A stretch of DNA of 33,734 nucleotides from a virus (taxonomy: Duplodnaviria > Heunggongvirae > Uroviricota > Caudoviricetes). Position 1 is the stretch's first letter. Every line of letters starts with the position of its first letter. Positions 76-33,734 of this stretch are shown piece by piece. The notes under the pieces were generated by a model. The model was not told where the DNA came from. It saw only the letters and a program-made list of their open reading frames with translations, and did not search any database. Made by a program: the position numbers and the translations under genes. The stretch is from positions 1 to 33,734 of IMG/VR virus record IMGVR_UViG_2778261657_000006; one strand, given 5' to 3'.

Positions 76-1152
76 GTGAGTATGGCTAACGCCTGGCTCA
101 GATTATGGCATGACATGCCAAATGACCCTAAGTGGCGAACAATTGCCAGGGTGTCAGGGCAGCCAATTGCAACAGTGATGGCAGTGTATATCCACCTCCT
201 GGTGAGTGCGTCACGAAATGTCACGCGAGGTCACATTGATGTCACGACAGAAGATTTGGCAAGTGCACTCGACGTGACAGAGGAGGTAATTGATTCAATT
301 TTGCAGACGATGCAGGGGCGGGTACTTGATGGTGATTTAATCACTGGATGGGAAAAACGCCAGGTGCTGAAAGAGGACAACGGCAATATTTCGCAAACCG
401 CAAAATCTCCGGCAGAGCGCAAGAGGGCGCAGCGAGAGAGGGAAAGAAAGCGGGAACAAAATGGCGATTGTCACGGCGAGTCACGAAATGTCACGCACAT
501 GTCACGACGAGTCACGACAGATAAAGATACAGATAAAGATACAGATCAAGAAGATCAAAACACTATGGTCCATGGCGTAAAAAACGCCACGAACCAGGCA
601 GGGGATGCTCAGACCGTCAATCTTGGTCAGCCAGCAGGCACGACACCGGAAGCCGACTCAGCGTATGCGCTGAAAGCCGATTCGGGCGCTGTGCAGCAGG
701 TGATGACCGCAAGGCAGGAGCAATCACACCAACTTCAGCAGCCTGAAGCCGATTCCGCCATTCAGCGGGAAGCCGATCGGGTAGTCCCGGAAAACACCGG
801 GCAGCCTGTGGGACGAGTGGATTATCCTGATGTGTTCGAACAGGTCTGGCGGGAATACCCGTTGCGTGCCGGGGCAAACCCGAAGAAATCCGCTTTCAGT
901 GCCTGGAAAGCCAGATTACGCGAGGGGGTGCCACCAGAGGCCATGCTGGATGGTGTGAGGCGTTACGCAAGATACCTGGCGGCTACCGGGAAAACGGGAA
1001 CGGAATTTGTTCAGCGAGCGACGACGTTTTTGGGACCGGACCGGAATTTTGAGAACCCTTGGTTGCTCCCGGCAAGCGGCACGAACAACCAGCGTTGTGT
1101 GAATCATATTTCTGAACCGGATAACGAAATTCCGCCGGGCTTCAGGGGGTAA
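76..1152 (+). CDS. Putative phage replication initiation protein (O-equivalent; C-terminal region resembles the YdaU/DUF1376-type replication domain)
   Basis: 358-aa ORF. The coding sequence contains two clusters of 10-bp-phased TCACG repeats and an adjacent AT-rich tandem repeat, as in lambda where ori lies inside O. Basic KR-rich linker in the middle and a conserved-looking C-terminal domain (YPDVFEQVWREYP...GPDRNFENPWLLP). Start may be GTG at 76 or ATG at 82. Family assignment from memory, not searched. Confidence 0.55.
   Translation: MSMANAWLRLWHDMPNDPKWRTIARVSGQPIATVMAVYIHLLVSASRNVTRGHIDVTTEDLASALDVTEEVIDSILQTMQGRVLDGDLITGWEKRQVLKEDNGNISQTAKSPAERKRAQRERERKREQNGDCHGESRNVTHMSRRVTTDKDTDKDTDQEDQNTMVHGVKNATNQAGDAQTVNLGQPAGTTPEADSAYALKADSGAVQQVMTARQEQSHQLQQPEADSAIQREADRVVPENTGQPVGRVDYPDVFEQVWREYPLRAGANPKKSAFSAWKARLREGVPPEAMLDGVRRYARYLAATGKTGTEFVQRATTFLGPDRNFENPWLLPASGTNNQRCVNHISEPDNEIPPGFRG
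211..246. repeat. Iteron-like cluster 1: four TCACG/TCACA motifs phased at 10-11 bp (putative origin iterons)
   Basis: Direct reading: tcacgaaatg tcacgcgagg tcacattgat gtcacgacag, with motifs starting at 211, 221, 231 and 242. Confidence 0.5.
471..520. repeat. Iteron-like cluster 2: five TCACG motifs phased at 10-11 bp
   Basis: Direct reading: tcacggcgag tcacgaaatg tcacgcacat gtcacgacga gtcacgacag, with motifs at 471, 481, 491, 502 and 512. Cluster 1 is nearly a copy of part of this cluster. Confidence 0.55.
520..557. repeat. AT-rich tandem repeat (gataaagataca x2, then gatcaagaagatca) flanking iteron cluster 2; candidate DNA-unwinding element
   Basis: Direct reading. Encodes the DKDTDKDTDQEDQ low-complexity stretch inside the replication protein. 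Confidence 0.4.
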
Positions 1153-1788: not shown

Positions 1789-3600
1789 TTAAAGGATCCA
1801 GATTTCAGGATTCTTTAGCGTCTCAATTTGGTTTTTATTACTGGCATAAAATGCATGATACATGTCTATCATTTTTTCGTTGGAGCTGATAAAAACAGAT
1901 GGATCTTTGTTTAAAATTCTGCTATATGTATCAAATATTGCTTTGTATTCTGGTGTTAAATTATTAGATAGAACTGATGTTACTGTCTCAACTTTGTTTG
2001 ATGGATTGAAATTTTTAAAAAACAGTCCTTCGAAATGAGGTATTTGAATAAATACCATTGGTTTTTTACTTTTAGAGCATTCGTTCATTATGGATACATT
2101 TGAACCCCATGCTCCATTACCTGAAACGCTTCCTTGCTTTAAGCATTTTGGAATGTCGGAGTCATGTACTGCTATATACTCAACGTTAAATTGATTTAAT
2201 ATTTTAGCAAATGTTTTTATATTCCCTTTTCCTAAACAGTCAATGATATGATAATCAACTCCGACAATATCACATATTTTGTTAATGACGATTTTTTCAG
2301 TTGGGCCTTCAACTAATATTATATTGTCGTAAAAGAAAAACTCATTAACCATTGGGTTGCATAATCTTATCATTTTCATATTATCTTTTTCCTCTTCAGA
2401 AAAAGATAGTTCATCTGTAGATATTGTTTTATTTAGCGATTTGTCTTTTTCTATCCTAATTATAGTCGTGTGCTTCTTGGATAAGTCTATGAATACAGGG
2501 GAGTGTGTTGTAGCCATCACCTGCCAGTTATCATTGTTTGCTGCAAAATCATAAAGCGAGTCCCTCGCACTTCTAATTATAGGAGGGTGAAGAAATGATT
2601 CAGGCTCATCAATCAATAAAATATATTGTTTTTTCTCAACAGAGATAGGCTTACCTTTCGCTTTTTTTATTTTATCTCGTGCATGAGATTCGTGAGTCAA
2701 AATTTGCAAAGCAGACCATAAAACGGAGCGGCGAACACCGTGACCTTGGTTCTCGAGAAGAGAGCTATTTATCCCATCCATTTTCACTGTAAGGTTAGAT
2801 TCTGAAACCATAACATCCGCATCTACGGGATCCTTGGAAAGTATGTTTAATTCCAGTTCTAGCCCAGGAAAAACAGATGATGATGATTTGGAGACCTGCT
2901 GTAGAAGATCATCGATTTTTGATTTGGAATCTTTCATAAGAGTGTCTGTCAACTCTTGTATTTTCTGTATTATATCAGCTTTACTTTCCCCTGTTTTCAG
3001 TAACTCATCTTTTGCATCTTCCTTTAAGAAACTTATGATAATTTTTTTAGTTTCATCCATGGATTTATCTGGGCTTATTCTTATTGGTTGAGGAACTCGA
3101 CTTTGTAGTAGTGTGTCAAGTCCCCCAGAGCCCCCATCAATAAATATGCGTTTGCCAGAGGCATCATCAAGGCCATAGGATTGTTTTTGGGCTGCTTTTT
3201 CTGGATGTGACCAAACCCATTTAACACAATAATAGAGTTTGCTTTCCAATGGGGTATTATTTTTCTCCCAATCTCCCCCATACTTTCTTGCCATATTTCT
3301 TCTGTCAAGAGCATCATCTTTATAAAACCATTTCTCTCCCCCTAATGTACGAATATCATCATCAGTGATATCAGTGAAAATTCCGCACATTTCAATTGGT
3401 ATAGATATATCTGAGTTATAAAAATCATGAGCAGTCAGGCCTTTTGCTGATCCTAAAGATGCAAACTTTTCATACGCATCTAATATTGTTGACTTTCCAG
3501 AGTTATTTGGACCAATTAGCACAACTATATCATCGATATATACTTCTATTTCATCTTTTATCGACTTGTAATTTTTAATATTAAATTGCTGTAGCTTCAT
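1789..3600 (-). CDS. OLD-family (overcoming lysogenization defect-like) ABC-type ATPase fused to a TOPRIM nuclease domain; candidate anti-phage defence / exclusion protein
   Basis: 603-aa ORF. N-terminal Walker A GPNNSGKST (aa 30-38), Walker B/D-loop LLIDEPESFLHP, H-loop ATTHSP. C-terminal TOPRIM signature ILVEGPTEK (conserved Glu, about aa 431) and HDSD (DxD, about aa 480; codons around 2161-2169). Very AT-rich compared with the flanking phage genes. Candidate TATAAT -10 upstream and a hairpin terminator downstream. Confidence 0.8.
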   Translation of the reverse strand: MKLQQFNIKNYKSIKDEIEVYIDDIVVLIGPNNSGKSTILDAYEKFASLGSAKGLTAHDFYNSDISIPIEMCGIFTDITDDDIRTLGGEKWFYKDDALDRRNMARKYGGDWEKNNTPLESKLYYCVKWVWSHPEKAAQKQSYGLDDASGKRIFIDGGSGGLDTLLQSRVPQPIRISPDKSMDETKKIIISFLKEDAKDELLKTGESKADIIQKIQELTDTLMKDSKSKIDDLLQQVSKSSSSVFPGLELELNILSKDPVDADVMVSESNLTVKMDGINSSLLENQGHGVRRSVLWSALQILTHESHARDKIKKAKGKPISVEKKQYILLIDEPESFLHPPIIRSARDSLYDFAANNDNWQVMATTHSPVFIDLSKKHTTIIRIEKDKSLNKTISTDELSFSEEEKDNMKMIRLCNPMVNEFFFYDNIILVEGPTEKIVINKICDIVGVDYHIIDCLGKGNIKTFAKILNQFNVEYIAVHDSDIPKCLKQGSVSGNGAWGSNVSIMNECSKSKKPMVFIQIPHFEGLFFKNFNPSNKVETVTSVLSNNLTPEYKAIFDTYSRILNKDPSVFISSNEKMIDMYHAFYASNKNQIETLKNPEIWIL

Positions 3601-4458: not shown

Positions 4459-4486
4459 AACCCGTTTCGGCGGGTTTTGTTTTTTC
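4459..4486 (+). terminator. Rho-independent terminator after hok
   Basis: Short GC stem acccg...cgggt followed by tttgttttttcc. Confidence 0.5.
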
Positions 4487-4557
4487 CTGGCATTCTGGTT
4501 TACAATTCGCACGCCAGCCTGAACAACTGGCACCTGCTGCGCCAGCAGAGAAAACAG

Positions 4558-4836
4558 ATGGCGCACAAGACCAAATTTCACAATTCTGATAACTCAGCCG
4601 ACCCTGCCATCCGGTACGGGCGGCGTTCACACGTCTTTAAAACTGACTGGTACCAGCATGATCCGTGCACTGAAGAACAGGCCGAATGGCTGATTCAGTG
4701 TTATCGCAGGCGCGGACGCGAGGTCAGGAAAGACCTCAGTCTTGACTTACGACACTGGATAATTTCCGTCAGGCTTCCTTATTCCGAACGCCCACCACGT
4801 CCATCCCGCACATTCCAGCAACGCATCTGGAGGTAA
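4558..4836 (+). CDS. Hypothetical protein in the position of Qin rem (between hok and the DUF968 gene)
   Basis: ORF in frame with track ORF 4477..4836, whose TTG start lies inside the hok terminator. The first ATG at 4558 gives about 92 aa. Assignment rests on synteny with the Qin prophage (hokD-rem-ydfU), recalled from memory. Confidence 0.4.
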   Translation: MAHKTKFHNSDNSADPAIRYGRRSHVFKTDWYQHDPCTEEQAEWLIQCYRRRGREVRKDLSLDLRHWIISVRLPYSERPPRPSRTFQQRIWR

Positions 4837-5893: not shown

Positions 5894-6271
5894 ATGACTG
5901 AACGCATAGAATTTGTTTTGCCTTACCCGCCGACGGTGAATACCTACTGGCGACGTCGTGGCAGCACATATTTTGTATCAAAAGCCGGTGAGCGTTATCG
6001 CCGTGATGTGGCGCTTATTGTTCGCCAGCAGCGACTGAAATTAAACCTGTCCGGAAGGCTGGCAATAAAAATTATTGCAGAGCCACCGGATAAGCGCCGC
6101 CGCGACCTGGACAATATCCTGAAGGCACCACTGGATGCGCTGACGCATGCCGGACTACTTATAGACGACGAGCAGTTTGATGAAATCAATATTGTGCGCG
6201 GACTGCCTGTTCCTGGTGGGCGGTTGGGCGTGAAGATTTACGAAATTACAGGTGATAACGATGGTGCGTGA
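5894..6271 (+). CDS. rusA: RusA-family Holliday junction resolvase
   Basis: 125 aa with the RusA hallmarks: [54 protein letters not shown]. Confidence 0.85.
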
Positions 6272-6647
6272 TATTCAGCAGGTTATGGAGCGGTGGGGAG
6301 CATGGGCTGCGAACAATCACGAAGATGTGTCATGGGCGTCAATCGCTGCTGGTTTTAAAGGATTAATCCCGCCGAAAGTGAAATCACGCCCTCAGTGTTC
6401 TGATGATGATGCAATGATAATTTGTGGCTGTATGGCCCGGTTGAACAAGAAAAATCAGGATTTGCACGATTTGTTGGTGGATTATTACGTAGGTGGAATG
6501 ACTTTTATGGGGTTGGCACGAAAGCATGGGTGTTCGGATACCTGTATTGGCAAGCGCCTGCAGAAAGCGGAAGGGGTTATTGATGGCATGTTGATGATGC
6601 TTGATATCCGACTGGAGATGGACAGATACGTAGAACGAATCATGTAG
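6261..6647 (+). CDS. Late-gene antiterminator Q (phage 82 / QuuD-type)
   Basis: Product [23 protein letters not shown]...[23 protein letters not shown]... closely resembles the DLP12 QuuD / phage 82 Q family as recalled. Overlaps the rusA stop. Followed by a promoter-terminator pair. Start could also be 6252. Confidence 0.7.
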
Positions 6648-6920: not shown

Positions 6921-7409
6921 ATGGCTATTCAAATCTCAGTTGAAACTCTTTCCCCGATCACCCATAACCAAATCCCTGTCATTACTACCGAGCTTTTGGC
7001 ACAACTTTATGGCACCGAAACTAATAACATCAAAGTGAACTATACACGCAATGCCGAGCGTTTTGTTTGTGGGAAACACTACTTCAAATTGGAAGGGGCT
7101 GAGTTGCGGGAATTTAAGAACAAGGTTACTCAAAGTAACTTAGTTGCACCGCGTACAAAGCACCTCATCCTCTGGACAGAACGCGGAGCAGCCCGTCACA
7201 CCAAAATGCTGGAAACCGATCAGGCGTGGGAAGTGTTCGAAAAACTGGAAGACTGTTATTTCAGCCAAAAACAACCACCAGCAGCACAAAACACCCCAAC
7301 CCAAAATGATGGATGCGCATTACTGATCCACTTCGATAAACACGGTCAGGTCGACTTCACGGAAAAACTACCCGCCGATGCGATGGTATGCACTCTGGAA
7401 CGGTTTTAA
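6921..7409 (+). CDS. ORF6N-domain / antirepressor-like protein (BRO/KilA-N superfamily-like) in the Q-to-lysis interval
   Basis: 162 aa. N-terminal region (ITHNQIPVITTELLAQLYGTETNNIKVNYTRNAERF..GKHYFKLEG.ELREFK) resembles the ORF6N/antirepressor fold as recalled; not searched. AGGA-type ribosome-binding site (aaaaaggatcatcctATG). Confidence 0.5.
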   Translation: MAIQISVETLSPITHNQIPVITTELLAQLYGTETNNIKVNYTRNAERFVCGKHYFKLEGAELREFKNKVTQSNLVAPRTKHLILWTERGAARHTKMLETDQAWEVFEKLEDCYFSQKQPPAAQNTPTQNDGCALLIHFDKHGQVDFTEKLPADAMVCTLERF

Positions 7410-7509: not shown

Positions 7510-7631
7510 ATGCCTGAAAAACGGTACAGGACGTTAAACGCGCTGGTGGTTGCGAATACTGGTCTTTCGGCTTGTATTTTTGTAAATCGATATATACTTA
7601 TCTTGTGACCAGTAATGTCAGGGCAATTGAT

Positions 7632-8375
7632 ATGAATGAAGCTTGTTCTGTTGTTTTTGTTCATTCCCCGTTTGTTGTGCTCTTTGAAGGAAAAGAGCTC
7701 TCTCTGGAAAGTGGTAGTGCACTTCTTGTCAGGGGGGGAGCTGGATCGTTATTGCCCTTTTCGGAATGTTTTCGGCGAATAAGTCTCAGTGAATCGACAA
7801 TTATCCGTTACCTGTTGTGTGGAGACGAAAAACAGGATGTAGTTTTAGTCCGGCAAATACCACGATATCTTTGCGTGAGTTTTCCCAAGGCAGAATTGAT
7901 GGGCATCCTGATTGATTATCTTTGTGAGGAAAAGATTCATACGGACAATTTAGCGGAAATGCTTTCCTTTTCGTGTCTGGCGTTTTTCTCATCAGAGAAA
8001 ATGTTTTCGTCGTTTCTGACCGCGTGTATTGGCAATATTAGTGACAGGCTTAGTGCATTGTTTCGTACGGACATTGCAGCAAACTGGACTCTGAGAGATG
8101 TGTCTTCGCGGTTATGTATCAGTGAAAGTTTGTTAAAAAAAAGACTGAAAGAAGAAGGCACCTGTTTCAGTGAGTTGTTGCTTACAGAGAGAATGAGAAT
8201 GGCAGCAATGCTGTTGAATCAATCTCGTTGCGCCATCAACAGAATCGCTGCTCAGTGTGGCTATAATTTTACATCTTATTTTATCAGCGTATTCAGGAGT
8301 TATTTTGGTGTTACACCGGCAGGTTACAGGATGGCTGCATTCAATGAGATGAGTTTAAGTGTTACTCAAGAATAA
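7632..8375 (+). CDS. AraC/XylS-family transcriptional regulator (prophage-encoded cargo)
   Basis: C-terminal AraC-type helix-turn-helix pair (WTLRDVSSRLCISESLLKKRLKEE...INRIAAQCGYNFTSYFISVFRSYFGVTPAGYR). AT-rich compared with phage core genes. Track ORF starts at TTG 7572; the first ATG is at 7632. Confidence 0.75.
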   Translation: MNEACSVVFVHSPFVVLFEGKELSLESGSALLVRGGAGSLLPFSECFRRISLSESTIIRYLLCGDEKQDVVLVRQIPRYLCVSFPKAELMGILIDYLCEEKIHTDNLAEMLSFSCLAFFSSEKMFSSFLTACIGNISDRLSALFRTDIAANWTLRDVSSRLCISESLLKKRLKEEGTCFSELLLTERMRMAAMLLNQSRCAINRIAAQCGYNFTSYFISVFRSYFGVTPAGYRMAAFNEMSLSVTQE

Positions 8376-8426: not shown

Positions 8427-8554
8427 ATCCGCGCCACGTCCGGCGTACATCACATCAGATAACACCACACAAAAGGTATCTGCGGGTGCCTTTGACGGGG
8501 TGTTGTTTTTTTACGGGCCGACAGTGGCCCTTTTTTATTTACAGGAGAAAAAGT

Positions 8555-8944
8555 ATGTCTGAACCCTTATCCGGTTCCGGCACGGCTGCGGCGCTCGGTG
8601 GGGCGACGGTATTCGGGCTGTTTACCGGAACGGATTTCGGGATTGTGTTTGGTGCATTCGCAGGGGCGCTGTTTGTGGCCACGATACCACAGAAGATTTC
8701 TGTCTGGCGTGTGGCAGCGCATTTTCTGGTGTCGTTCATTGTTGGCGTGCTGGGGGCGGATGTGATGGCGTCTTACCTGGTTGAAAAACTGAATCTCCAC
8801 AGCACATCTCTCGACGCGCTTTGCGCGGTACTGGTATCGGTGGTGTCGGTGAAGATTCTCTCATTCATCCACCAGCAGGATATCGCATCGCTGGTATCCG
8901 GGCTGTTCTCCCGTCTGCGGGGTGGAGGCGGTAATGTTAAGTAA
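8555..8944 (+). CDS. Putative holin (multi-transmembrane small protein)
   Basis: ATG preceded by aggaga. About three hydrophobic transmembrane segments and a charged C-terminus. First gene of the lysis cassette, upstream of the endolysin. Confidence 0.55.
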   Translation: MSEPLSGSGTAAALGGATVFGLFTGTDFGIVFGAFAGALFVATIPQKISVWRVAAHFLVSFIVGVLGADVMASYLVEKLNLHSTSLDALCAVLVSVVSVKILSFIHQQDIASLVSGLFSRLRGGGGNVK

Positions 8945-14574: not shown

Positions 14575-16079
14575 TGGCAATTCTGGATGATGTGATTGGT
14601 GTTTTTTCACCAGGCTGGAAGGCGGCGAGATTGCGCTCAAGAGCGTTAATTCGCGCTTATGAGGCCGTAAAACCCACCCGCACACACAAAGCCCGACGGG
14701 AAAACCGTTCTGCTGACCAGCTCAGTAAGTATGGGGCGGTTTCCCTGCGGGAGCAGGCCCGTTTTCTGGATATCAATCATGACCTGGTAATCGGTGCTTT
14801 CGACAAACTTGAGGAGCGGGTGATTGGTGCAAAGGGGATCATTGTTGAACCCCAGCCATTACTGAAAAACGGTGATATGGCCACAGAAGTGGCAATGATT
14901 ATCCGTCGTTTGTGGTCGGAATGGTCTGTCAGTCCGGATGTGACCGGGCAGTATACGCGCCCCATGCTCGAGCGTCTGCTGCTGCGTACCTGGTTACGTG
15001 ATGGTGAAGTGTTTGCCCAGATGGTCAGAGGCGCAGGTGCCGGGCTGGTCTGGACTGCCGGCGTGCCTTTCTGGCTCGAGGCAATAGAGCCGGATTTTGT
15101 GCCCATGCTCAGTGATGAGTCCGCGGGAATGAATCAGGGGGTTTTTCTGGATGAGTGGGGCAGGCCGAAAAAATACCTGGTTTATAAAAATTATCCGGTT
15201 ACCGGCCGACAGAGTGATACCAAAGAGATCGCCGCTGAAAATATGGTGCATCTGAAGTTTACCCGCCGGCTGCATCAGACGCGTGGTACATCCATGTTGT
15301 CAGGTGTGTTGATGCGGATCAGTGCGCTTAAGGAATATGAAGATGCTGAACTGACAGCGGCGCGTATTGCTGCGGCTCTGGGGCTGTATATCCGTAAAGG
15401 AGACGGACAGGATTATGAAGACGTTGTGACAAATAAAGATAATGACCGGGAACTGCATATCACTCCCGGCATTATTTATGACGATCTGCGCAAGGGGGAA
15501 GATATTGGCATGGTCAAATCCGATCGGCCTAACCCTAACCTGGAAACTTTTCGTAATGGTCAGTTGCGGGCCGTGGCGGCGGGCACACGTCTGAGTTTTT
15601 CCAGTGCAGCACGTAACTATAACGGTACCTACAGCGCCCAGCGACAGGAACTGGTCGAGTCCACCGATGGTTATCTGATCATGCAGGACTGTTTTATTGG
15701 TGCTGTAACCCGTCCGGTGTACCGGGCATGGCTGAATATGGTGGTTGCCGCTGGGTTGCTGAAAATCCCGCCGGATGTCGATATGAAAACGTTATATAAC
15801 GCAACATATTCTGGTCCGGTGATGCCGTGGATCGACCCTGTCAAGGAGGCTGAAGCCTGGAAAATCCAGATCCGTGGTGGTGCGGCGACAGAATCAGACT
15901 GGGTGCGCGCCAGTGGGCGTAATCCGGATGATGTCAAACGTCGGCGCAAGGCCGAAATTGATGAAAACCGCAGGCTGGAGCTGGTGTTTGATACCGATCC
16001 AGCCTGCGATAAAGGAGGTGGTAATGCTGAAACAGAACGCGTGGTTCCGCGGCGAACCGAAGGCCAGCCTGAAGAATAA
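14574..16079 (+). CDS. Portal protein (lambda gpB family)
   Basis: 501 aa, in portal position and of portal size. Overlaps the W stop (TGATGG). Confidence 0.75.
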   Translation: MAILDDVIGVFSPGWKAARLRSRALIRAYEAVKPTRTHKARRENRSADQLSKYGAVSLREQARFLDINHDLVIGAFDKLEERVIGAKGIIVEPQPLLKNGDMATEVAMIIRRLWSEWSVSPDVTGQYTRPMLERLLLRTWLRDGEVFAQMVRGAGAGLVWTAGVPFWLEAIEPDFVPMLSDESAGMNQGVFLDEWGRPKKYLVYKNYPVTGRQSDTKEIAAENMVHLKFTRRLHQTRGTSMLSGVLMRISALKEYEDAELTAARIAAALGLYIRKGDGQDYEDVVTNKDNDRELHITPGIIYDDLRKGEDIGMVKSDRPNPNLETFRNGQLRAVAAGTRLSFSSAARNYNGTYSAQRQELVESTDGYLIMQDCFIGAVTRPVYRAWLNMVVAAGLLKIPPDVDMKTLYNATYSGPVMPWIDPVKEAEAWKIQIRGGAATESDWVRASGRNPDDVKRRRKAEIDENRRLELVFDTDPACDKGGGNAETERVVPRRTEGQPEE

Positions 16080-18096
16080 TTCCTGGTTCAGGATGAAGGC
16101 GGGTAATAAAAGTGACGCAGATATTTATATCTATGACGAGATTGGTTTCTGGGGAGTTACGGCGAAGCAGTTTGTCAGTGATCTGAATGCGCTGGGTAAT
16201 ATCACCCACATTAATCTCCATATCAATTCACCGGGTGGCGATGTCTTTGAAGGCATCGCCATTTTTAATGCGCTGAAAAATCATGGGGCGTCCATCACTG
16301 TTTATGTGGATGGTGTCGCTGCATCCATGGCATCGGTCATTGCAATGGTGGGTGATCCCGTCATCATGCCGGAAAACGCATTCATGATGATCCATAAACC
16401 ATGGGGAGTGAGTGGTGGCGATGCGGATGACATGCGTGATTATGCCGACCTGCTTGATAAAGTTGAGTCGGTCCTGTTGCCTGCTTATGCGCAGAAAACC
16501 GGGAAAACAACCGATGAAATTGCTGCCATGCTGGCGGATGAAACCTGGATGTCCGGTGCCGAATGTCTGGCACACGGATTTGCTGACCAGGTGACACCGG
16601 AAGTTAAGGCAATGGCATGTATTCAGTCAAAACGTACAGAGGAATTTAAAAAAATGCCGGAATCCATCCGAAATATGATTATTCCGCCACGCAACAGCGC
16701 AACGCGTGAACCTGAAAACCCAAATGCAGTATCTCAGACACAGGCGCAGGTTACGACTCAGGTTGCCGCAACGACGAACAGCGCTGCGCCCACTGCAACT
16801 GCATCTTCCGCAGATGAAAACAGCATCCGTGCACAGGTGCTGGCTGAGCAAAAAGCACGCGTGAGTGGTATTAATGAGCTGTTCGGTATGTTTGGTGGGC
16901 GTTATCAGACATTGCAGGCCAGTTGTCTTTCCGATCCGGAGTGCTCGCTTGAGCAGGCCCGTGAGAAGTTACTGAACGAAATGGGTAAGGAATTCTCACC
17001 ATCAAATAAAAATACCCCGGCCCATATTTATGCCGGTAACGGTAATTTTGTGGGGGACGGGATCCGCCAGGCGCTGATGGCGCGTGCCGGATTTGCTGAG
17101 CGTGAACAGAATAACGTCTACAACGGGATGACCCTGCGCGAATATGCCCGTATGTCGCTGACTGAACGGGGTATCGGGGTTTCCGGTTATAACCCCATGC
17201 AGATGGTTGGTGCGGCATTCACACACAGCTCGTCTGACTTCGGTAATATTCTGCTGGATGTTGCGAACAAAGCCATTCTGCAGGGCTGGGAAGAAGCCCC
17301 TGAGACTTACGAGCAGTGGACCCGGAAAGGTCAGCTGTCTGATTTTAAAATTGCTCATCGTGTGGGAATGGGGGGCTTCAGTTCTCTGCGTCAGGTGCGT
17401 GAAGGGGCTGAATATAAGTACGTCACCACCGGAGATAAACAGGCCACGATTGCACTGGCGACCTATGGTGAACTGTTCAGTATCACCCGTCAGGCCATTA
17501 TCAATGATGATCTGAATATGCTGACCGATGTCCCGATGAAACTGGGCCGTGCGGCGAAATCCACTATTGCCGATCTGGTTTATGCCATTCTGACGTCTAA
17601 CCCGAAAATCTCCACAGATAATGTAAGTCTGTTCGATAAAGCGAAACATGCAAACGTACTGGAGAGCGCTGCAATGGACGTGGCATCGCTGGATAAAGCC
17701 CGCCAGTTGATGCGCGTTCAGAAAGAGGGGGAGCGTCATCTGAATATTCGTCCTGCGTTCGTACTGGTACCGACAGCGATGGAATCCGTGGCTAACCAGG
17801 TGATTCGTTCTGCCAGCGTGAAAGGCGCAGATATTAATGCCGGCATTATTAACCCGGTGAAAGATTTTGCGACCGTTATTGCTGAGCCGCGCCTTGATGA
17901 TAACAGCCAGACCACCTTTTATCTGGCTGCGGCAAAAGGTACGGATACAATTGAAGTGGCTTATCTCAATGGGGTGGATACGCCATATATTGATCAGATG
18001 GAGGGCTTCAGTGTGGATGGTGTGACAACGAAAGTGCGTATTGACGCCGGCGTTGCACCGGTTGATCACCGCGGTCTGGTGAAATGTACGGCGTAA
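16024..18096 (+). CDS. ClpP-like (S14) prohead protease fused to a major capsid protein domain
   Basis: Start ATG 16024 with ribosome-binding site aaaggaggtggta. N-terminal ClpP motifs (INSPGGDVFEGIAIFNAL, VAASMAS, MIHKPWG). Large C-terminal domain consistent with a capsid subunit. Track ORF begins at 15874 inside the portal gene. Confidence 0.7.
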   Translation: MLKQNAWFRGEPKASLKNNSWFRMKAGNKSDADIYIYDEIGFWGVTAKQFVSDLNALGNITHINLHINSPGGDVFEGIAIFNALKNHGASITVYVDGVAASMASVIAMVGDPVIMPENAFMMIHKPWGVSGGDADDMRDYADLLDKVESVLLPAYAQKTGKTTDEIAAMLADETWMSGAECLAHGFADQVTPEVKAMACIQSKRTEEFKKMPESIRNMIIPPRNSATREPENPNAVSQTQAQVTTQVAATTNSAAPTATASSADENSIRAQVLAEQKARVSGINELFGMFGGRYQTLQASCLSDPECSLEQAREKLLNEMGKEFSPSNKNTPAHIYAGNGNFVGDGIRQALMARAGFAEREQNNVYNGMTLREYARMSLTERGIGVSGYNPMQMVGAAFTHSSSDFGNILLDVANKAILQGWEEAPETYEQWTRKGQLSDFKIAHRVGMGGFSSLRQVREGAEYKYVTTGDKQATIALATYGELFSITRQAIINDDLNMLTDVPMKLGRAAKSTIADLVYAILTSNPKISTDNVSLFDKAKHANVLESAAMDVASLDKARQLMRVQKEGERHLNIRPAFVLVPTAMESVANQVIRSASVKGADINAGIINPVKDFATVIAEPRLDDNSQTTFYLAAAKGTDTIEVAYLNGVDTPYIDQMEGFSVDGVTTKVRIDAGVAPVDHRGLVKCTA

Positions 18097-24631: not shown

Positions 24632-25330
24632 ATGCAGGATATCCGGCAGGAAACACTGAATGAATGTACCCGTACGGAGCAGTCTGCCAGCCTGGTACTC
24701 TGGGAAATTGATCTGACAGAGATTGGCGGGGAGCGTTATTTTTTCAGTAATGAGCCTAACGAGAAGGGGGAGGCCGTCACCTGGCAGGGCCGGAAATATG
24801 AGGTGTATCCTGTTCAGGGAGCAGGGTTTGAAATGAAAGGCAAGGGAAGCAGCGCCCGCCCCACCCTGACGGTGTCCAACCTGTACGGGATGGTTACCGG
24901 GATGGTGGAGGATTTACAGAGTCTGGCTGGCGGAACGGTGATCCGGCGTAAGGTTTACGCCCGTTTTCTGGATGCGGTGAATTTTACCAATGGAAACAGT
25001 GAAGCCGATCCGGAACAGGAGGTGATCAGTTACTGGCGTATTGAACAGTGCAGCGATCTGACGGCGGTGACGGCAACGTTTGTTCTGGCCTCGCCAGCGG
25101 AGACAGACGGTGCGGTTTTCCCGGGACGTACCATGCTGGCCAACACCTGTACCTGGACCTATCGCGGTGATGAGTGCGGTTATCACGGTCCGGCTGTCGC
25201 GGATGAATATGACGAGCCGACGTCTGATATCACGAAGGATAAATGCAGTAAATGCCTGAGTGGCTGTAAGTCACGTCATAACGTCGGTAACTTTGGCGGT
25301 TTCCTTTCCATCAATAAACTTTCGCAGTAA
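24632..25330 (+). CDS. L: Minor tail protein L
   Basis: 232 aa, lambda gpL size, with conserved Cys cluster (CTWTYRGDECGY...CSKCLSGC). Confidence 0.85.
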   Translation: MQDIRQETLNECTRTEQSASLVLWEIDLTEIGGERYFFSNEPNEKGEAVTWQGRKYEVYPVQGAGFEMKGKGSSARPTLTVSNLYGMVTGMVEDLQSLAGGTVIRRKVYARFLDAVNFTNGNSEADPEQEVISYWRIEQCSDLTAVTATFVLASPAETDGAVFPGRTMLANTCTWTYRGDECGYHGPAVADEYDEPTSDITKDKCSKCLSGCKSRHNVGNFGGFLSINKLSQ

Positions 25331-25334
25331 ATCC

Positions 25335-26078
25335 ATGACAGAGACTGAATCAGTGATTCTGGCGCACGCCCGGCGATGTGCGCCAGCGGAGTCGTGCGGC
25401 TTCGTGGTGAGAACGCCGGAGGGGGAAAGGTATCTTCCCTGCGTGAATATCTCCGGTACTCCGGAGGCGTGTTTCCGGATGGTACCGGAAGACTGGCTGC
25501 GGGCACAAATACAGGGCGAGGTGGTGGCGCTGGTCCACAGCCATCCCGGTGGCTTGCCCTGGCTGAGTGAAGCCGACCGTCAGCTGCAGGTACAGAGTGA
25601 TTTGCCGTGGTGGCTGGTCTGCCGGGGTGAAATTCATAAATTCCGCTGCGTGCCACATCTGACCGGAAGGCGCTTTGAGCACGGGGTGACGGACTGTTAC
25701 ACGCTGTTCCGGGATGCTTATCATCTGGCAGGAATTGAGATACCGGATTTTCATCGTGAGGATGACTGGTGGCGTAACGGTCAGAATCTTTACCTGGATA
25801 ACATGGCAGATACCGGCTTTTACCCGGTCACCCTGTCAGCGGCGCAGCCGGGCGATGTGTTGCTGTGCTGCTTTGGTTCATCGGTGCCGAATCATGCCGC
25901 CATTTACTGTGGTGACGGCGAGCTGCTGCACCATATTCCTGAACAACTGAGTAAACGAGAGAGGTATACAGAAAAATGGCAGCGACGCACACACTCCCTC
26001 TGGCGGCACCGGGCATGGCACGCCTCTGCCTTTACGGGGATTTGCAACGATTTGGTCGCCGCATCGACCTTCGTGTGA
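25335..26078 (+). CDS. K: Tail assembly protein K (JAB/MPN and NlpC/P60 domains)
   Basis: HSHPGG JAMM motif and a downstream Cys-containing NlpC/P60-like region. The 3' end overlaps the I start by about 100 nt. Confidence 0.8.
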   Translation: MTETESVILAHARRCAPAESCGFVVRTPEGERYLPCVNISGTPEACFRMVPEDWLRAQIQGEVVALVHSHPGGLPWLSEADRQLQVQSDLPWWLVCRGEIHKFRCVPHLTGRRFEHGVTDCYTLFRDAYHLAGIEIPDFHREDDWWRNGQNLYLDNMADTGFYPVTLSAAQPGDVLLCCFGSSVPNHAAIYCGDGELLHHIPEQLSKRERYTEKWQRRTHSLWRHRAWHASAFTGICNDLVAASTFV

Positions 26079-26623
26079 AAACGGGGGCTGAAGCCATCCG
26101 GGCGCTGGCCACACAACTTCCGTCGTTTCGTCAGAAACTGAGTGACGGCTGGTATCAGGTACGTATCGCCGGGCGGGATGTCAGCGAGTCCGGGGTAACG
26201 GCACAGCTCCATGAGCCGTTACCGGACGGTGCGGTGATCCACATTGTTCCCCGGCTTGCCGGTGCAAAGCATGGCGGAATTTTTCAGACCATCCTGGGGG
26301 CTGTGGTTGTTGCGGTAGCCTGGTGGAACCCCGCGGGCTGGCTGGGTGCGGCAGCACTTACGGGGATGTATGCCGCCGGGGCCAGTATGATCCTCGGCGG
26401 GATAGCGCAGATGCTGACACCGGCCATCAAAACGCCGTCCATGGAGTCCGCGGATAACGGCAAACAGAACACCTTTTTTTCCTCGCTGGATAATATGATC
26501 GCCCAGGGGAATCCGTTACCGGTACTGTATGGTGAGATGCGTGTGGGGTCGCGTGTGATTTCACAGAGTATCAGTACTGCTGATGAGGGTGATGGTGGTC
26601 AGGTTGTGGTGATTGGTCGCTGA
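25976..26623 (+). CDS. I: Tail assembly protein I
   Basis: MAATHTLPLAAPGMARLCLYGDLQRFGRRIDLRVKTGAEAIRALATQLP... and C-terminal GEMRVGSRVISQSISTADEGDGGQVVVIGR match lambda gpI. Confidence 0.9.
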   Translation: MAATHTLPLAAPGMARLCLYGDLQRFGRRIDLRVKTGAEAIRALATQLPSFRQKLSDGWYQVRIAGRDVSESGVTAQLHEPLPDGAVIHIVPRLAGAKHGGIFQTILGAVVVAVAWWNPAGWLGAAALTGMYAAGASMILGGIAQMLTPAIKTPSMESADNGKQNTFFSSLDNMIAQGNPLPVLYGEMRVGSRVISQSISTADEGDGGQVVVIGR

Positions 26624-26642
26624 TGTAAAACGTTTTATGTGA

Positions 26643-26668
26643 AACCGCCTGCGGGCGGTTTTGTTGTT
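26643..26668 (+). terminator. Terminator-like hairpin between I and J
   Basis: aaccgcc-tgcg-ggcggtt stem followed by ttgttgtt. Confidence 0.35.
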
Positions 26669-26683
26669 AATGGAGCCAGATAA

Positions 26684-29600
26684 ATGGGTAAAGGTGGCAG
26701 CAAGGGGCACACTCCTCGCGAAGCGAAAGATAACCTGAAATCCACGCAGTTACTGAGCGTGATTGATGCGATCAGTGAAGGGCCGATTGAAGGTCCGGTG
26801 GACGGAATGAAAAGCGTGTTGCTGAACAGTACGCCGGTGCTGGACAGTGAAGGTAAGGCCAATTTCTCCGGGGTCACGGTGGTGTTCCGTGCCGGTGAGC
26901 AGGAGCAGACACCGCCGGAGGGATTTGAATCCTCCGGCTCCGAGACGGTGCTGGGTACGGAAGTGAAGTACGACACGCCGATTACCCGGACCATCACGTC
27001 TGCAAACATCGACCGTCTGCGCTTTACCTTCGGTGTGCAGGCACTGGTGGAAACCACCTCAAAGGGTGACAGGAATCCGTCGGAAGTCCGTCTGCTGGTT
27101 CAGATACAGCGTAATGGTGGCTGGGTGACGGAAAAAGACATCACCATTAAGGGCAAAACCACCTCGCAGTATCTGGCCTCGGTGGTGGTGGGTAACCTGC
27201 CGCCGCGCCCGTTTAATATCCGGATGCGCAGAATGACGCCGGACAGCACTACAGACCAGCTGCAGAACAAAACGCTCTGGTCGTCATACACCGAAATCAT
27301 CGATGTGAAACAGGGCTACCCGAACACGGCACTGGTCGGTGTACAGGTGGACTCGGAGCAGTTCGGCAGCCAGCAGGTGAGTCGTAATTATCATCTTCGC
27401 GGGCGCATTCTGCAGGTGCCGTCGAACTATAACCCGCAGACGCGGCAATACAGCGGTATCTGGGACGGAACGTTTAAACCGGCATACAGCAACAACATGG
27501 CCTGGTGTCTGTGGGATATGCTGACCCATCCGCGCTACGGCATGGGGAAACGTCTTGGTGCGGCAGATGTGGATAAATGGGCGCTGTATGTCATCGGCCA
27601 GTACTGCGACCAGTCGGTGCCGGACGGTTTTGGCGGTACGGAGCCGCGCATCACCTGTAATGCGTACCTGACCACACAGCGTAAGGCGTGGGATGTGCTC
27701 AGTGATTTCTGCTCGGCGATGCGCTGTATGCCGGTATGGAACGGGCAGACGCTGACGTTCGTGCAGGACCGGCCGTCGGATAAGGTGTGGACCTATAACC
27801 GCAGTAATGTGGTGATGCCGGATGATGGCGCGCCGTTCCGCTACAGTTTCAGCGCCCTGAAGGACCGCCATAATGCCGTTGAGGTGAACTGGATTGACCC
27901 GGATAACGGCTGGGAAACGGCAACAGAGCTTGTGGAGGACACGCAGGCCATTGCCCGTTACGGTCGTAATGTCACGAAGATGGATGCCTTTGGCTGTACC
28001 AGCCGGGGGCAGGCACACCGAGCCGGGCTGTGGCTGATTAAAACGGAGCTGCTGGAAACGCAGACCGTGGACTTCAGCGTGGGTGCTGAAGGGCTTCGCC
28101 ATGTGCCGGGCGATGTCATTGAAATCTGCGATGATGACTATGCCGGTATCAGCACCGGCGGGCGCGTGCTGGCGGTGAACAGCCAGACCCGGACGCTGAC
28201 GCTCGACCGTGAAATCACGCTGCCATCCTCCGGCACCACGCTGATAAGCCTGGTTGACGGAAATGGCAATCCGGTCAGCGTGGAGGTTCAGTCCGTCACC
28301 GACGGCGTGAAGGTGAAAGTGAGCCGGGTTCCTGACGGCGTTGCCGAGTACAGCGTGTGGGGGCTGAAGCTGCCGACGCTGCGCCAGCGCCTGTTCCGCT
28401 GCGTGAGTATCCGTGAGAACGACGACGGCACGTATGCCATCACCGCCGTGCAGCATGTACCGGAAAAAGAGGCCATCGTGGATAACGGGGCGCACTTTGA
28501 CGGCGACCAGAGCGGCACGGTGAATGGTGTCACGCCGCCAGCGGTGCAGCACCTGACCGCCGAAGTCACCGCAGACAGCGGGGAATATCAGGTGCTGGCG
28601 CGCTGGGACACGCCGAAGGTGGTGAAGGGGGGGAGCTTTATGCTTCGCCTGACCGTGGCCGCGGATGACGGCAGTGAGCGGCTGGTCAGCACGGCCCGGA
28701 CGACGGAAACCACTTACCGCTTCACACAACTGGCACTGGGGAACTACAGGCTGACAGTCCGGGCGGTAAATGCCCGGGGGCAGCGGGGCGATCCGGCGTC
28801 GGTATCGTTCCGGATTGCCGCACCGGCAGCACCGTCGAGGATTGAGCTGACGCCGGGCTATTTTCAGATAACCGCCACGCCGCATCTTGCCGTTTATGAC
28901 CCGACGGTACAGTTTGAGTTCTGGTTCTCGGAAAAGCGGATTACCGATATCAGGCAGGTTGAAACCACAGCCCGCTATCTTGGTACGGCGCTGTACTGGA
29001 TAGCCGCCAGTATCAATATTAAACCGGGCCATGATTATTACTTTTATATCCGCAGTGTGAACACCGTTGGCAAATCGGCATTCGTGGAGGCCGTCGGTCG
29101 GGCGAGCGATGATGCGGAAGGTTACCTGGATTTTTTCAAAGGCAAGATAACCGAATCCCATCTCGGCAAGGAGCTGCTGGAAAAAGTCGAGCTGACGGAG
29201 GATAACGCCAGCAGACTGGAGGAGTTTTCGAAAGAGTGGAAGGACGCCAACGATAAGTGGAATGCCATGTGGGCTGTCAAAATTGAGCAGACCAAAGACG
29301 GCAAACATTATGTCGCGGGTATTGGCCTCAGCATGGAGGACACGGAGGAAGGCAAACTGAGCCAGTTTCTGGTTGCCGCCAATCGTATCGCGTTTATTGA
29401 CCCGGCAAACGGGAATGAAACGCCGATGTTTGTGACGCAGGGCAACCAGATATTCATGAACGACGTGTTCCTGAAGCGCCTGACGGCCCCCACCATTACC
29501 AGCGGCGGCAATCCTCCGGCCTTTTCCCTGACACCGGACGGAAAGCTGACCGCTAAAAATGCGGATATCAGTGGCAGTGTGAATGCGAACTCCGGGACGC

Positions 29601-30082
29601 TCAGTAATGTGACGATAGCTGAAAACTGTACGATAAACGGTACGCTGAGGGCGGAAAAAATCGTCGGGGACATTGTAAAGGCGGCGAGCGCGGCTTTTCC
29701 GCGCCAGCGTGAAAGCAGTGTGGACTGGCCGTCAGGTACCCGTACTGTCACCGTGACCGATGACCATCCTTTTGATCGCCAGATAGTGGTGCTTCCGCTG
29801 ACGTTTCGCGGAAGTAAGCGTACTGTCAGCGGCAGGACAACGTATTCGATGTGTTATCTGAAAGTACTGATGAACGGTGCGGTGATTTATGATGGCGCGG
29901 CGAACGAGGCGGTACAGGTGTTCTCCCGTATTGTTGACATGCCAGCGGGTCGGGGAAACGTGATCCTGACGTTCACGCTTACGTCCACACGGCATTCGGC
30001 AGATATTCCGCCGGATACGTTTGCCAGCGATGTGCAGGTTATGGTGATTAAGAAACAGGCGCTGGGCATCAGCGTGGTCTGA
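26684..30082 (+). CDS. J: Tail tip / host specificity protein J (central tail fibre)
   Basis: 1132 aa. N-terminus [37 protein letters not shown] matches lambda gpJ. Confidence 0.92.
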
Positions 30083-30143
30083 GTGTGTTACAGAGGTTCG
30101 TCCGGGAACGGGCGTTTTATTATAAAACAGTGAGAGGTGAACG

Positions 30144-30764
30144 ATGCGTAATGTGTGTATTGCCGTTGCTGTATTTGCCGCACTTGCGGTGACAGTCACT
30201 CCGGCCCGTGCGGAAGGTGGACATGGTACGTTTACGGTGGGCTATTTTCAGGTGAAACCGGGTACATTGCCGTCGTTGTCGGGCGGGGATACCGGTGTGA
30301 GTCATCTGAAAGGGATTAACGTGAAGTACCGTTATGAGCTGACGGACAGTGTGGGGGTGATGGCTTCCCTGGGGTTCGCCGCGTCGAAAAAGAGCAGCAC
30401 AGTGATGACCGGGGAGGATACGTTTCACTATGAGAGCCTGCGTGGACGTTATGTGAGCGTGATGGCCGGACCGGTTTTACAAATCAGTAAGCAGGTCAGT
30501 GCGTACGCCATGGCCGGAGTGGCTCACAGTCGGTGGTCCGGCAGTACAAGGGATTACCGTAAGACGGAAATCACTCCCGGGTATATGAAAGAGACGACCA
30601 CCGCCAGGGACGAAAGTGCAATGCGGCATACCTCAGTGGCGTGGAGTGCAGGTATACAGATTAATCCGGCAGCGTCCGTCGTTGTTGATATTGCTTATGA
30701 AGGCTCCGGCAGTGGCGACTGGCGTACTGACGGATTCATCGTTGGGGTCGGTTATAAATTCTGA
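30144..30764 (+). CDS. lom: Lom-like outer membrane protein (Ail/Lom/OmpX family beta-barrel)
   Basis: Signal peptide ending in an ARAEG cleavage region, alternating beta-strand pattern, C-terminal ...GVGYKF. In the lom position after J. Confidence 0.85.
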   Translation: MRNVCIAVAVFAALAVTVTPARAEGGHGTFTVGYFQVKPGTLPSLSGGDTGVSHLKGINVKYRYELTDSVGVMASLGFAASKKSSTVMTGEDTFHYESLRGRYVSVMAGPVLQISKQVSAYAMAGVAHSRWSGSTRDYRKTEITPGYMKETTTARDESAMRHTSVAWSAGIQINPAASVVVDIAYEGSGSGDWRTDGFIVGVGYKF

Positions 30765-30791
30765 TTAGCCAGGTAACACAGTGTTATGACA

Positions 30792-30817
30792 GCCCGCCGG
30801 AACCGGTGGGCTTTTTT
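30792..30817 (+). terminator. Rho-independent terminator after lom
   Basis: gcccgccgg-aa-ccggtgggc stem followed by tttttt. Confidence 0.6.
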
Positions 30818-30828
30818 GTGGGGTGAAT

Positions 30829-33153
30829 ATGGCAGTAAAGATTTCAGGAGTCCTGAAAGACGGCACAGGAAAACCGGTACAGAACTGCACCATTCAGCTG
30901 AAAGCCAGACGTAACAGCACCACGGTGGTGGTGAACACGGTGGGCTCAGAGAATCCGGATGAAGCCGGGCGTTACAGCATGGATGTGGAGTACGGTCAGT
31001 ACAGTGTCATCCTGCAGGTTGACGGTTTTCCACCATCGCACGCCGGGACCATCACCGTGTATGAAGATTCACAACCGGGGACGCTGAATGATTTTCTCTG
31101 TGCCATGACGGAGGATGATGCCCGGCCGGAGGTGCTGCGTCGTCTTGAACTGATGGTGGAAGAGGTGGCGCGTAACGCGTCCGTGGTGGCACAGAGTACG
31201 GCAGACGCGAAGAAATCAGCCGGCGATGCCAGTGCATCAGCTGCTCAGGTCGCGGCCCTTGTGACTGATGCAACTGACTCAGCACGCGCCGCCAGCACGT
31301 CCGCCGGACAGGCTGCATCGTCAGCTCAGGAAGCGTCCTCCGGCGCAGAAGCGGCATCAGCAAAGGCCACTGAAGCGGAAAAAAGTGCCGCAGCCGCAGA
31401 GTCCTCAAAAAACGCGGCGGCCACCAGTGCCGGTGCGGCGAAAACGTCAGAAACGAATGCTGCAGCGTCACAACAATCAGCCGCCACGTCTGCCTCCACC
31501 GCGGCCACGAAAGCGTCAGAGGCCGCCACTTCAGCACGAGATGCGGTGGCCTCAAAAGAGGCAGCAAAATCATCAGAAACGAACGCATCATCAAGTGCCG
31601 GTCGTGCAGCTTCCTCGGCAACGGCGGCAGAAAATTCTGCCAGGGCGGCAAAAACGTCCGAGACGAATGCCAGGTCATCTGAAACAGCAGCGGAACGGAG
31701 CGCCTCTGCCGCGGCAGACGCAAAAACAGCGGCGGCGGGGAGTGCGTCAACGGCATCCACGAAGGCGACAGAGGCTGCGGGAAGTGCGGTATCAGCATCG
31801 CAGAGCAAAAGTGCGGCAGAAGCGGCGGCAATACGTGCAGAAAATTCGGCAAAACGTGCAGAAGATATAGCTTCAGCTGTCGCGCTTGAGGATGCGGACA
31901 CAACGAGAAAGGGGATAGTGCAGCTCAGCAGTGCAACCAACAGCACGTCTGAAACGCTTGCTGCAACGCCAAAGGCGGTTAAGGTGGTAATGGATGAAAC
32001 GAACAGAAAAGCCCCACTGGACAGTCCGGCACTGACCGGAACGCCAACAGCACCAACCGCGCTCAGGGGAACAAACAATACCCAGATTGCGAACACCGCT
32101 TTTGTACTGGCCGCGATTGCAGATGTTATCGACGCGTCACCTGACGCACTGAATACGCTGAATGAACTGGCCGCAGCGCTCGGGAATGATCCAGATTTTG
32201 CTACCACCATGACTAACGCGCTTGCGGGTAAACAACCGAAGAATGCGACACTGACGGCGCTGGCAGGGCTTTCCACGGCGAAAAATAAATTACCGTATTT
32301 TGCGGAAAATGATGCCGCCAGCCTGACTGAACTGACTCAGGTTGGCAGGGATATTCTGGCAAAAAATTCCGTTGCAGATGTTCTTGAATACCTTGGGGCC
32401 GGAGAGAATTCGGCCTTTCCGGCAGGTGCGCCGATCCCGTGGCCATCAGATATCGTTCCGTCTGGCTACGTCCTGATGCAGGGGCAGGCGTTTGACAAAT
32501 CAGCCTACCCAAAACTTGCTGTCGCGTATCCATCGGGTGTGCTTCCTGATATGCGAGGCTGGACAATCAAGGGGAAACCCGCCAGCGGTCGTGCTGTATT
32601 GTCTCAGGAACAGGATGGAATTAAGTCGCACACCCACAGTGCCAGTGCATCCGGTACGGATTTGGGGACGAAAACCACATCGTCGTTTGATTACGGGACG
32701 AAAACAACAGGCAGTTTCGATTACGGCACCAAATCGACGAATAACACGGGGGCTCATGCTCACAGTCTGAGCGGTTCAACAGGGGCCGCGGGTGCTCATG
32801 CCCACACAAGTGGTTTAAGGATGAACAGTTCTGGCTGGAGTCAGTATGGAACAGCAACCATTACAGGAAGTTTATCCACAGTTAAAGGAACCAACACACA
32901 GGGTATTGCTTATTTATCGAAAACGGACAGTCAGGGCAGCCACAGTCACTCATTGTCCGGTACAGCCGTGAGTGCCGGTGCACATGCGCATACAGTTGGT
33001 ATTGGTGCGCACCAGCATCCGGTTGTTATCGGTGCTCATGCCCATTCTTTCAGTATTGGTTCACACGGACACACCATCACCGTTAACGCTGCGGGTAACG
33101 CGGAAAACACAGTCAAAAACATTGCATTTAACTATATTGTGAGGCTTGCATAA
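30829..33153 (+). CDS. stf: Side tail fibre protein (Stf-like): lambda-type N-terminus, Ala/Ser-rich low-complexity shaft, C-terminal HxH-repeat tip domain
   Basis: N-terminus [36 protein letters not shown] matches lambda Stf. Long A/S/T-rich repeats. C-terminal [24 protein letters not shown] repeats and seven His-x-His motifs (HTHS, HAHS, HAHT, HSHS, HAHT, HQHP, HAHS, HGHT). Confidence 0.85.
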
Positions 33154-33734
33154 TGGCATTCAGAATGAGTGAACAACCACGGACCATAAAAATTTATAAT
33201 CTGCTGGCCGGAACTAATGAATTTATTGGTGAAGGTGACGCATATATTCCGCCTCATACCGGTCTGCCTGCAAACAGTACCGATATTGCACCGCCAGATA
33301 TTCCGGCTGGCTTTGTGGCTGTTTTCAACAGTGATGAGGCATCGTGGCATCTCGTTGAAGACCATCGGGGTAAAACCGTCTATGACGTGGCTTCCGGCGA
33401 CGCGTTATTTATTTCTGAACTCGGTCCGTTACCGGAAAATTTTACCTGGTTATCGCCGGGAGGGGAATATCAGAAGTGGAACGGCACAGCCTGGGTGAAG
33501 GATACGGAAGCAGAAAAACTGTTCCGGATCCGGGAGGCGGAAGAAACAAAAAAAAGCCTGATGCAGGTAGCCAGTGAGCATATTGCGCCGCTTCAGGATG
33601 CTGCAGATCTGGAAATTGCAACGGAGGAAGAAACCTCGTTGCTGGAAGCCTGGAAGAAGTATCGGGTATTGCTGAACCGTGTTGATACATCAACTGCACC
33701 TGATATTGAGTGGCCGACTTCACCTGCAGAGTAA
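33153..33734 (+). CDS. tfa: Tail fibre assembly protein (Tfa chaperone)
   Basis: 193 aa directly downstream of, and overlapping, the stf stop. Typical Tfa position and size. Confidence 0.8.

Follow-up and report, generated by a model that had tools for sequence, protein, structure and literature searches.

A side tail fiber gene identified as intact Ur-lambda stf in a lambdoid prophage with non-lambda head and tail-tube genes

The original side tail fiber of bacteriophage lambda is Ur-lambda gpStf (Hendrix and Duda 1992, as cited in PMC12617516), and it is the closest described counterpart of the gene treated here, the side tail fiber gene stf at positions 30829 to 33153 of IMG/VR record IMGVR_UViG_2778261657_000006, a 33,734-nucleotide stretch of Caudoviricetes DNA that was analyzed over its whole length (hereafter, the window). 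In lambda, Stf chains trimerize into one fiber, and four such fibers are attached where gpV meets gpM, through a dodecameric StfN collar (PMC12617516, PMC11338833); the collar is formed by gpStfN, that is, residues 1-91 (PMC12617516), and the fiber consists of two arms, one coiled-coil and one distal, and of a hinge at residues 394-422 (PMC12617516, PMC11338833). Reversible binding of the Stf tip to OmpC, an outer-membrane porin, makes adsorption ∼10-30 fold faster and is followed by irreversible binding of gpJ to LamB (PMC12617516, PMC11338833). The second system of reference is the long tail fiber protein gp37 of phage T4, which carries seven coordinated irons along its needle, with H929 in an iron site (PMC6957217), and which, like lambda Stf, binds OmpC according to the literature. 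T4 uses gp38 and gp57A (PMC6957217) where lambda uses the tail fiber assembly chaperone Tfa, and Tfa can replace T4 gp38 (Montag et al. 1989, as cited by PMC9659904). That lambda Stf is itself mosaic with T4 gp37 has long been on record in the literature (PMC12617516) and is not peculiar to this locus.

We identify the locus, with a probability of about 95%, as stf of bacteriophage lambda, present in a lambdoid prophage and intact as in Ur-lambda. The gene and the features on which the comparison with lambda turns are the following (aa, amino acid residues of Stf).

30829..33153, + strand: stf, intact Ur-lambda form, 774 aa plus stop (open reading frame; DNA and protein identity to lambda records)
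30829..31230, + strand: StfN, N-terminal tail-attachment (collar) domain, aa 1-134 (PF08400; PDB 9e7m/9mgh)
31132..32007, + strand: proximal Ala/Ser/Thr-rich heptad coiled-coil shaft, aa 102-393 (fast Fourier transform and self-identity offsets; limits from PMC12617516)
32012..32015, + strand: CCCC run (alignment to J02459 and HK630; direct sequence reading)

When compared with phage records by megablast, stf matches 16 lambda or lambda-derived genomes (including J02459/NC_001416) with 100% coverage and 99.8-99.9% identity. Aligned base by base with J02459, it is 99.8% identical, with four substitutions and one indel, and every 200-nucleotide (nt) bin is 99.5-100% identical, with no drop at any junction. 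The indel lies at 32012-32015, which read CCCC in the window and CCC in lambda PaPa (J02459) and HK630; the additional C is present in KT232076, and the GenBank annotation of HK630 records a frameshift due to a missing C relative to the Ur-lambda sequence. In lambda PaPa, the frame breaks after codon 395 to give orf-401 and orf-314 (orf-401 departs from the window frame from aa 396 onward), whereas the window frame reads through, so that a single extra C joins orf-401 and orf-314 in one Ur-lambda frame. Beyond this C, the window gene differs from the PaPa fragments by K338E and S689N, the latter being the sole difference in orf-314, and by two silent changes. The encoded protein shows zero differences from Stf of lambda KT232076 (ALA45720.1; K-12 CV601) and from WP_001407643.1 of E. 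coli NS-NP030, and one residue difference from LC730321. The gene, its intact frame, its start codon, and the gene order J-lom-stf-tfa are all shared with Ur-lambda. The identification as lambda stf meets no contradicting evidence, and the gene is already known and well studied: its protein is identical to database entries, and there is nothing new in the gene itself.

An earlier, sequence-only reading of this stretch had recognized a side tail fiber with a lambda-like N-terminus, which is borne out by the domains, the lambda identity, and the gene order, with aa 1-94 being 100% identical to the "Tail fiber protein" of PDB 9e7m/9mgh. It had further held that the C-terminal third is unlike that of lambda Stf and was swapped in horizontally at this locus, that is, that the gene encodes a chimeric fiber in which a lambda N-terminus carries an acquired, non-lambda gp37-like tip and would confer a host range unlike lambda's. 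Such exchanges have precedent, since the gp37-type tip occurs behind unrelated N-terminal parts in other proteins, and the long Stf of PhiR68_2 and mEp460_ev081 (1023 aa, likewise encoded after lom and before tfa) resembles the window protein over aa 1-519 (60% identity), which span the N-terminal domain, shaft, and distal region, and over the tip, aa 530-774 (71%), yet has an extra ∼270-aa module inserted between shaft and tip. Modularity is therefore real at the level of the Stf family. At the present locus, however, the C-terminal third is lambda's own, as is evident from the one-residue difference to orf-314 and from the uniformly high identity of the bins; the full-length alignment, the binned identity, and the protein comparison with lambda together refute a chimeric origin, to which we give almost no credence.

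The frame is uninterrupted from ATG 30829 to TAA 33151-33153 (774 codons, no internal stop). The listing of open reading frames (ORFs) places the start at GTG 30823, two codons 5′ of this ATG, but ATG 30829 agrees with the annotated start of lambda orf-401 and with the first residue of Stf in PDB 9e7m; a Shine-Dalgarno-like sequence, GGGGTGA, lies between it and an upstream hairpin at 30791-30812. At the 3′ end, the final A of the TAA is also the first base of the tfa ATG (TAATG overlap). Pfam detects phage_tail_N (PF08400) at aa 1-134 (E = 8.7e-75), a Phage_fiber_2 (PF03406) repeat at aa 358-396, Collar (PF07484) at aa 533-580, and Phage_fiber (PF03335) repeats. Four parts can be told apart in Stf: StfN at the N-terminus, the Ala-rich shaft with its heptad coiled coil, a distal region, and, at the C-terminus, the tip that is homologous to that of T4 gp37.

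The shaft had been described from the sequence as repetitive and rich in Ala, Ser, and Thr, and so it is, with 38.6% Ala, 20.2% Ser, and 9.0% Thr (68% combined) in aa 135-357. Its periodicity indicates a strict heptad coiled coil, more than mere low complexity: over aa 102-393, the Fourier transform of the Ala/hydrophobic pattern peaks at 3.5 and 7.0 residues, and the best ten self-identity offsets are all multiples of 7, at 0.31-0.35 compared with a shuffle maximum of 0.275. The same segment contains long ORFs in other frames, at 31052-31903 (− strand, 283 aa), 31268-31870 (+ strand, 200 aa), and 31326-32276 (− strand, 316 aa), which already the sequence-only reading had considered spurious. 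Their length of 200-316 aa, and the fact that one of them is the legacy J02459 coding sequence "orf206b" (20147-20767), could be taken to mean that one or more is a real overlapping gene, but all lie within the Ala/Ser/Thr-rich segment, in which codon GC is 0.61, 0.68, and 0.50 at positions 1, 2, and 3 and three of the other frames have only 2, 2, and 5 stops per 291 codons (range for all other frames, 2-20). This codon make-up leaves few stops and explains the other-frame ORFs. Their translations are low-complexity mirror images with no Pfam match at E ≤ 0.01, and modern lambda records do not annotate them. We accordingly rejected them as genes, and an overlapping gene here is exceedingly improbable.

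Turning to the distal end of the fiber, four features describe the tip.

32380..33150, + strand: gp37-type receptor-binding tip (collar, needle, head), aa 518-774 (phmmer to 2xgf_A; PF07484, PF03335)
32665..32736, + strand: GTKTTxSFDY tandem repeat, aa 613-636 (TRF, 30-nt period; 10-residue gap in T4)
32809..32940, + strand: hypervariable head (distal tip) segment, aa 661-704 (low identity to T4 gp37; not alignable among homologues)
32976..33072, + strand: 9-residue xGxHxHxxx units with His-x-His (HxH) motifs at aa 719, 728, 737, and 746 (TRF, spacing, T4 alignment)

In a phmmer search of PDB sequences, aa 518-774 match 2xgf_A, the T4 gp37 tip (chain residues 17-242), with E = 1.2e-72, in agreement with the gp37-type tip that had been proposed. 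Identity is 65.5% over 226 aligned residues and rises to 72-74% in the collar and needle segments; the collar domain, all seven iron-binding HxH motifs, and a C-terminal 15-residue stretch are conserved between the two tips. It should be noted that the comparison covers only the crystallized T4 fragment (residues 785-1026), which has no counterpart of the part of Stf N-terminal of aa 518. The tips differ in the head segment, aa 661-704, which is only 21% identical to T4 gp37 (33 aligned residues) and 11 residues longer, and in two insertions on the lambda side, an extra 10-residue unit and an extra 9-residue unit that contains an additional HxH.

The sequence-only reading had counted seven regularly spaced HxH motifs. 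The motifs are real, but there are eight, at aa 601, 643, 657, 705, 719, 728, 737, and 746, and with spacings of 42, 14, 48, 14, 9, 9, and 9 they are regular only for the last four. Of the 17 His residues of Stf, 16 lie within these motifs, whose number far exceeds what composition would yield (8 vs 0.93 ± 0.92 in 20,000 shuffles of aa 518-774, none of which reached 8). That they are of the metal-coordinating kind is supported by the alignment, in which seven of the eight fall on the iron-coordinating gp37 histidines 883/885, 915/917, 929/931, 966/968, 980/982, 989/991, and 998/1000; the gp37 numbering of this mapping was checked against H929, which is named in PMC6957217. The eighth lies in the 9-residue unit that is missing from T4 gp37 in the 2XGF alignment. 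TRF finds a 30-nt period at 32665-32733 and a 27-nt period at 32976-33045. The former corresponds to the GTKTTxSFDY repeat, which has one 10-residue unit more than T4 gp37 and varies in presence among homologues; the 24-residue Gly/Thr repeat string reported earlier is indeed found there, at aa 613-636.

A search with the tip returned 2,352 homologues at E ≤ 1e-5, from which 22 (59-94% identical) were aligned. Conservation of the HxH motifs, the lack of which the sequence-only reading would have taken as a refutation, holds in this set: six pairs are invariant in all 22 sequences, and the pair 657/659 is missing only in four of them, all with a shortened head. The head segment itself cannot be aligned among the 22. 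The eighth HxH is present only in those homologues that have the 9-residue unit, although the 22-sequence alignment sets this indel differently from the T4 alignment, making 728/730 rather than 737/739 the optional pair.

Layouts were counted in 113 complete tips among the matches listed. A single FDYG[T/S]K unit with 3+4 HxH, the T4 layout, is found in 83, and two units with 3+5 HxH, the lambda layout, in 10; another 18 have two units with 2+4 HxH, and two have other layouts. The long Stf of PhiR68_2 and mEp460_ev081 belongs with the T4-like layout (one unit, seven HxH) and has a different head segment. Five returning-strand HxH occur only alongside two FDYG[T/S]K units (10/10 such tips of the 113); the pairing of the two indels gives a Fisher p = 2e-7, to be read as a description of the pattern only, since the shared ancestry of the sequences keeps the counts from being independent. 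That five returning-strand motifs are never seen without the second unit would fit the lengthening, by one rung, of an antiparallel interwoven needle. With odds that we place a little above even, the lambda-type tip may be a gp37 needle extended by one rung and having eight rather than seven axial metal sites, produced by matched duplications of 10 residues in the outgoing strand and of a 9-residue HxH unit in the returning strand; prophage tips would then form discrete length classes with six, seven, and eight sites (18, 83, and 10 of the 113, respectively).

Much of what the protein is expected to do can be carried over from the identical published one: four trimeric side fibers would bind OmpC reversibly before gpJ engages LamB. 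By homology to 2XGF, each HxH would contribute, from the three chains, six His residues that coordinate one axial metal ion (iron in T4), and the metal sites may act as structural staples of the interwoven needle, as in gp37. The additional outgoing 10-residue and returning 9-residue units would lengthen this needle by a rung and add a putative eighth metal site. Receptor contact is presumed to fall to the variable segment of the head, aa 661-704, which would also set receptor specificity, by analogy with gp37, in which the receptor-binding residues sit in the equivalent part of the tip (PMC6957217).

Our reading of the locus has its limits. An AlphaFold2 monomer model of aa 518-774, computed with the 22-sequence alignment, has a mean pLDDT of 44.3 and a pTM of 0.22 and is uninformative for an obligate interdigitated trimer, so that the trimeric tip fold rests on sequence homology to 2XGF. 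According to PMC12617516, the receptor-binding domain of lambda Stf lacks an atomic structure; AlphaFold3 trimer models in the same study are consistent with gp37. Finally, V and M of the window phage are only ∼56% identical to those of lambda, and docking of a lambda-type StfN on this tail is therefore assumed. Support for the assumption comes from mEp460_ev081, which has the same tail type as the window phage and an StfN that is 91.8% identical, and from the same gene combination in other E. coli genomes.

The divergence of V and M also bears on whether stf might be a remnant, in decay or not expressed, that has only by chance stayed intact in a defective prophage and yields no fiber, either through failure of StfN to dock or through a block to transcription by the strong terminator-like hairpin at 30791-30812; stf is, moreover, dispensable for plaque formation in laboratory lambda (PMC12617516). 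Against this, the 2,325-nt frame is open although the shaft by itself has 2-20 stops in the other frames, its partner tfa is intact and translationally coupled, other E. coli prophages of this tail type have retained an identical protein, and StfN is conserved, as noted, in mEp460_ev081. As to the hairpin, the window encodes a Q antiterminator, and the same hairpin is present in lambda (the bins over 30738-30937 are 100% identical), where Ur-lambda still makes fibers. We consider a remnant unlikely, with perhaps a slim chance of being correct, and retain the identification as an intact Ur-lambda stf gene.

The surroundings of stf are described by four further features.

30791..30812, + strand: terminator-like hairpin between lom and stf (9-bp stem with 7 GC pairs, then TTTTTGT; 16 nt before the stf ATG)
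33153..33734, + strand: tfa, tail fiber assembly chaperone, 193 aa (PF02413 Caudo_TAP, E = 9e-44)
29252..33715, + strand: ∼99.7% lambda block comprising the J C-terminus, lom, stf, and nearly all of tfa (pairwise alignment to J02459)
33716..33734 of the window, and 13154..13970 of L006: tfa end variant (also in E. coli NS-NP030)

The gene order J (26684-30082), lom (30144-30764), stf, tfa (33153-33734) is that of lambda, with matching Pfam families; the genes 5′ of stf are identified by Pfam as Ail/Lom and a full gpJ. Tfa of the window is 98.4% identical to lambda orf-194, ends in WPTSPAE where lambda (194 aa) has WPAVPVME, and shows a distant match to the phage Mu assembly protein U (5yvq_B). 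A second terminator-like hairpin is found at 30099..30114 (+ strand), so that the two bracket lom (30144..30764), an arrangement that fits lom as a moron and a need for Q antitermination in late transcription into stf.

Near-identity to lambda is confined to one end of the window. Between 29252 and 33715 there are 14 differences from J02459 in 4,464 bp; DNA identity is 91-98% at 26938-29250 (most of J) and 63-93% at 24368-26900 (M to I), and good alignment to lambda is limited to 24368-33715. Elsewhere in the window, blastn gave no match to lambda except for one 65% stretch at 19113-20237. At the protein level, identity to lambda is 56.8% for V, 55.6% for M, 85.3% for L, 91.5% for K, 79.1% for I, 97.7% for J, and 99.5% for Lom. 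The heads and the remaining tail have ∼86% DNA identity to cdtI, Tritos, and mEp460; in contrast to lambda, the heads, terminase, tail tube, and tape measure of the window phage are thus cdtI/mEp460-like. It is the genome, not the stf gene, that is mosaic: a lambda-identical adsorption cassette is combined with head and tail-tube genes that are not lambda's.

The near-identity ends at 33716, 19 nt before the tfa stop. E. coli NS-NP030 has the same arrangement and the same tfa-end variant, with potB 233 bp downstream, which implies that tfa is the last prophage gene and that the right end of the prophage follows directly after it. The lambda b region is absent. In a collection of 5,426 complete E. 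coli genomes, 93 hold at least 80% of 26000..33734 (J-lom-stf-tfa), and none covers at least 80% of 1-24000. The best matches to 26000..33734 (98.3-98.8%) are mostly cattle or farm isolates; several K-12-derived laboratory strains (J53, NCM3722) match at 96.8%.

Several other genes of the prophage were recorded in passing. A lone 603-aa OLD-family nuclease gene at 1789..3600 (Pfam AAA_15 and an OLD-like TOPRIM domain; PADLOC "Old", E = 3.4e-73) lies on the − strand, opposite to its surroundings in the early (replication/nin) region, and is probably an anti-phage defense moron. The slot that holds stx in Stx phages, with the Q antiterminator (6252..6647) on one side and the holin (8486..8944) on the other, is occupied here by an AraC-family helix-turn-helix regulator at 7572..8375 (+ strand; PF12833/PF00165), likely a lysogenic-conversion or regulatory moron. 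Directly after Q, an ORF6N-domain protein at 6921..7409 (+ strand) gives weak PADLOC matches to the candidate system PDC-S05 (E = 9e-10). In the head module, which differs from lambda C/Nu3/D/E, a single 740-aa ORF at 15874..18096 (+ strand) has a ClpP protease domain at aa 96-241 and a major capsid domain at aa 444-737, and its E. coli counterparts are labeled "ClpP-like prohead protease/major capsid protein fusion" in RefSeq. For the ORFs at 76..1152 (+ strand, 358 aa) and 4477..4836 (+ strand, 119 aa), Pfam gave no match at E ≤ 0.001; the former overlaps DNA annotated as replication protein O or replisome organizer in related phage records. No tRNA genes were found in the window.

Taken together, the analysis confirms the earlier observation in part and supports its interpretation in part. 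The apt annotation for the gene is side tail fiber Stf, intact (Ur-lambda type), OmpC-binding, rather than a novel mosaic fiber. Lambda Stf is among the best-known phage fibers, being the subject of a 2025 cryo-EM study and of engineering work, and the locus carries little weight as a discovery. The layout classes with six, seven, and eight HxH, with their paired indels, would provide a simple rule for the choice of junctions in the engineering of chimeric fibers. For the biology of lambdoid phages, a wild prophage with non-lambda heads and tail tube has lambda's complete adsorption cassette (the receptor-binding end of J, lom, stf, and tfa) at ∼99.7% identity, a clean case of recent module exchange, which predicts that adsorption of this phage would depend on both LamB and OmpC.

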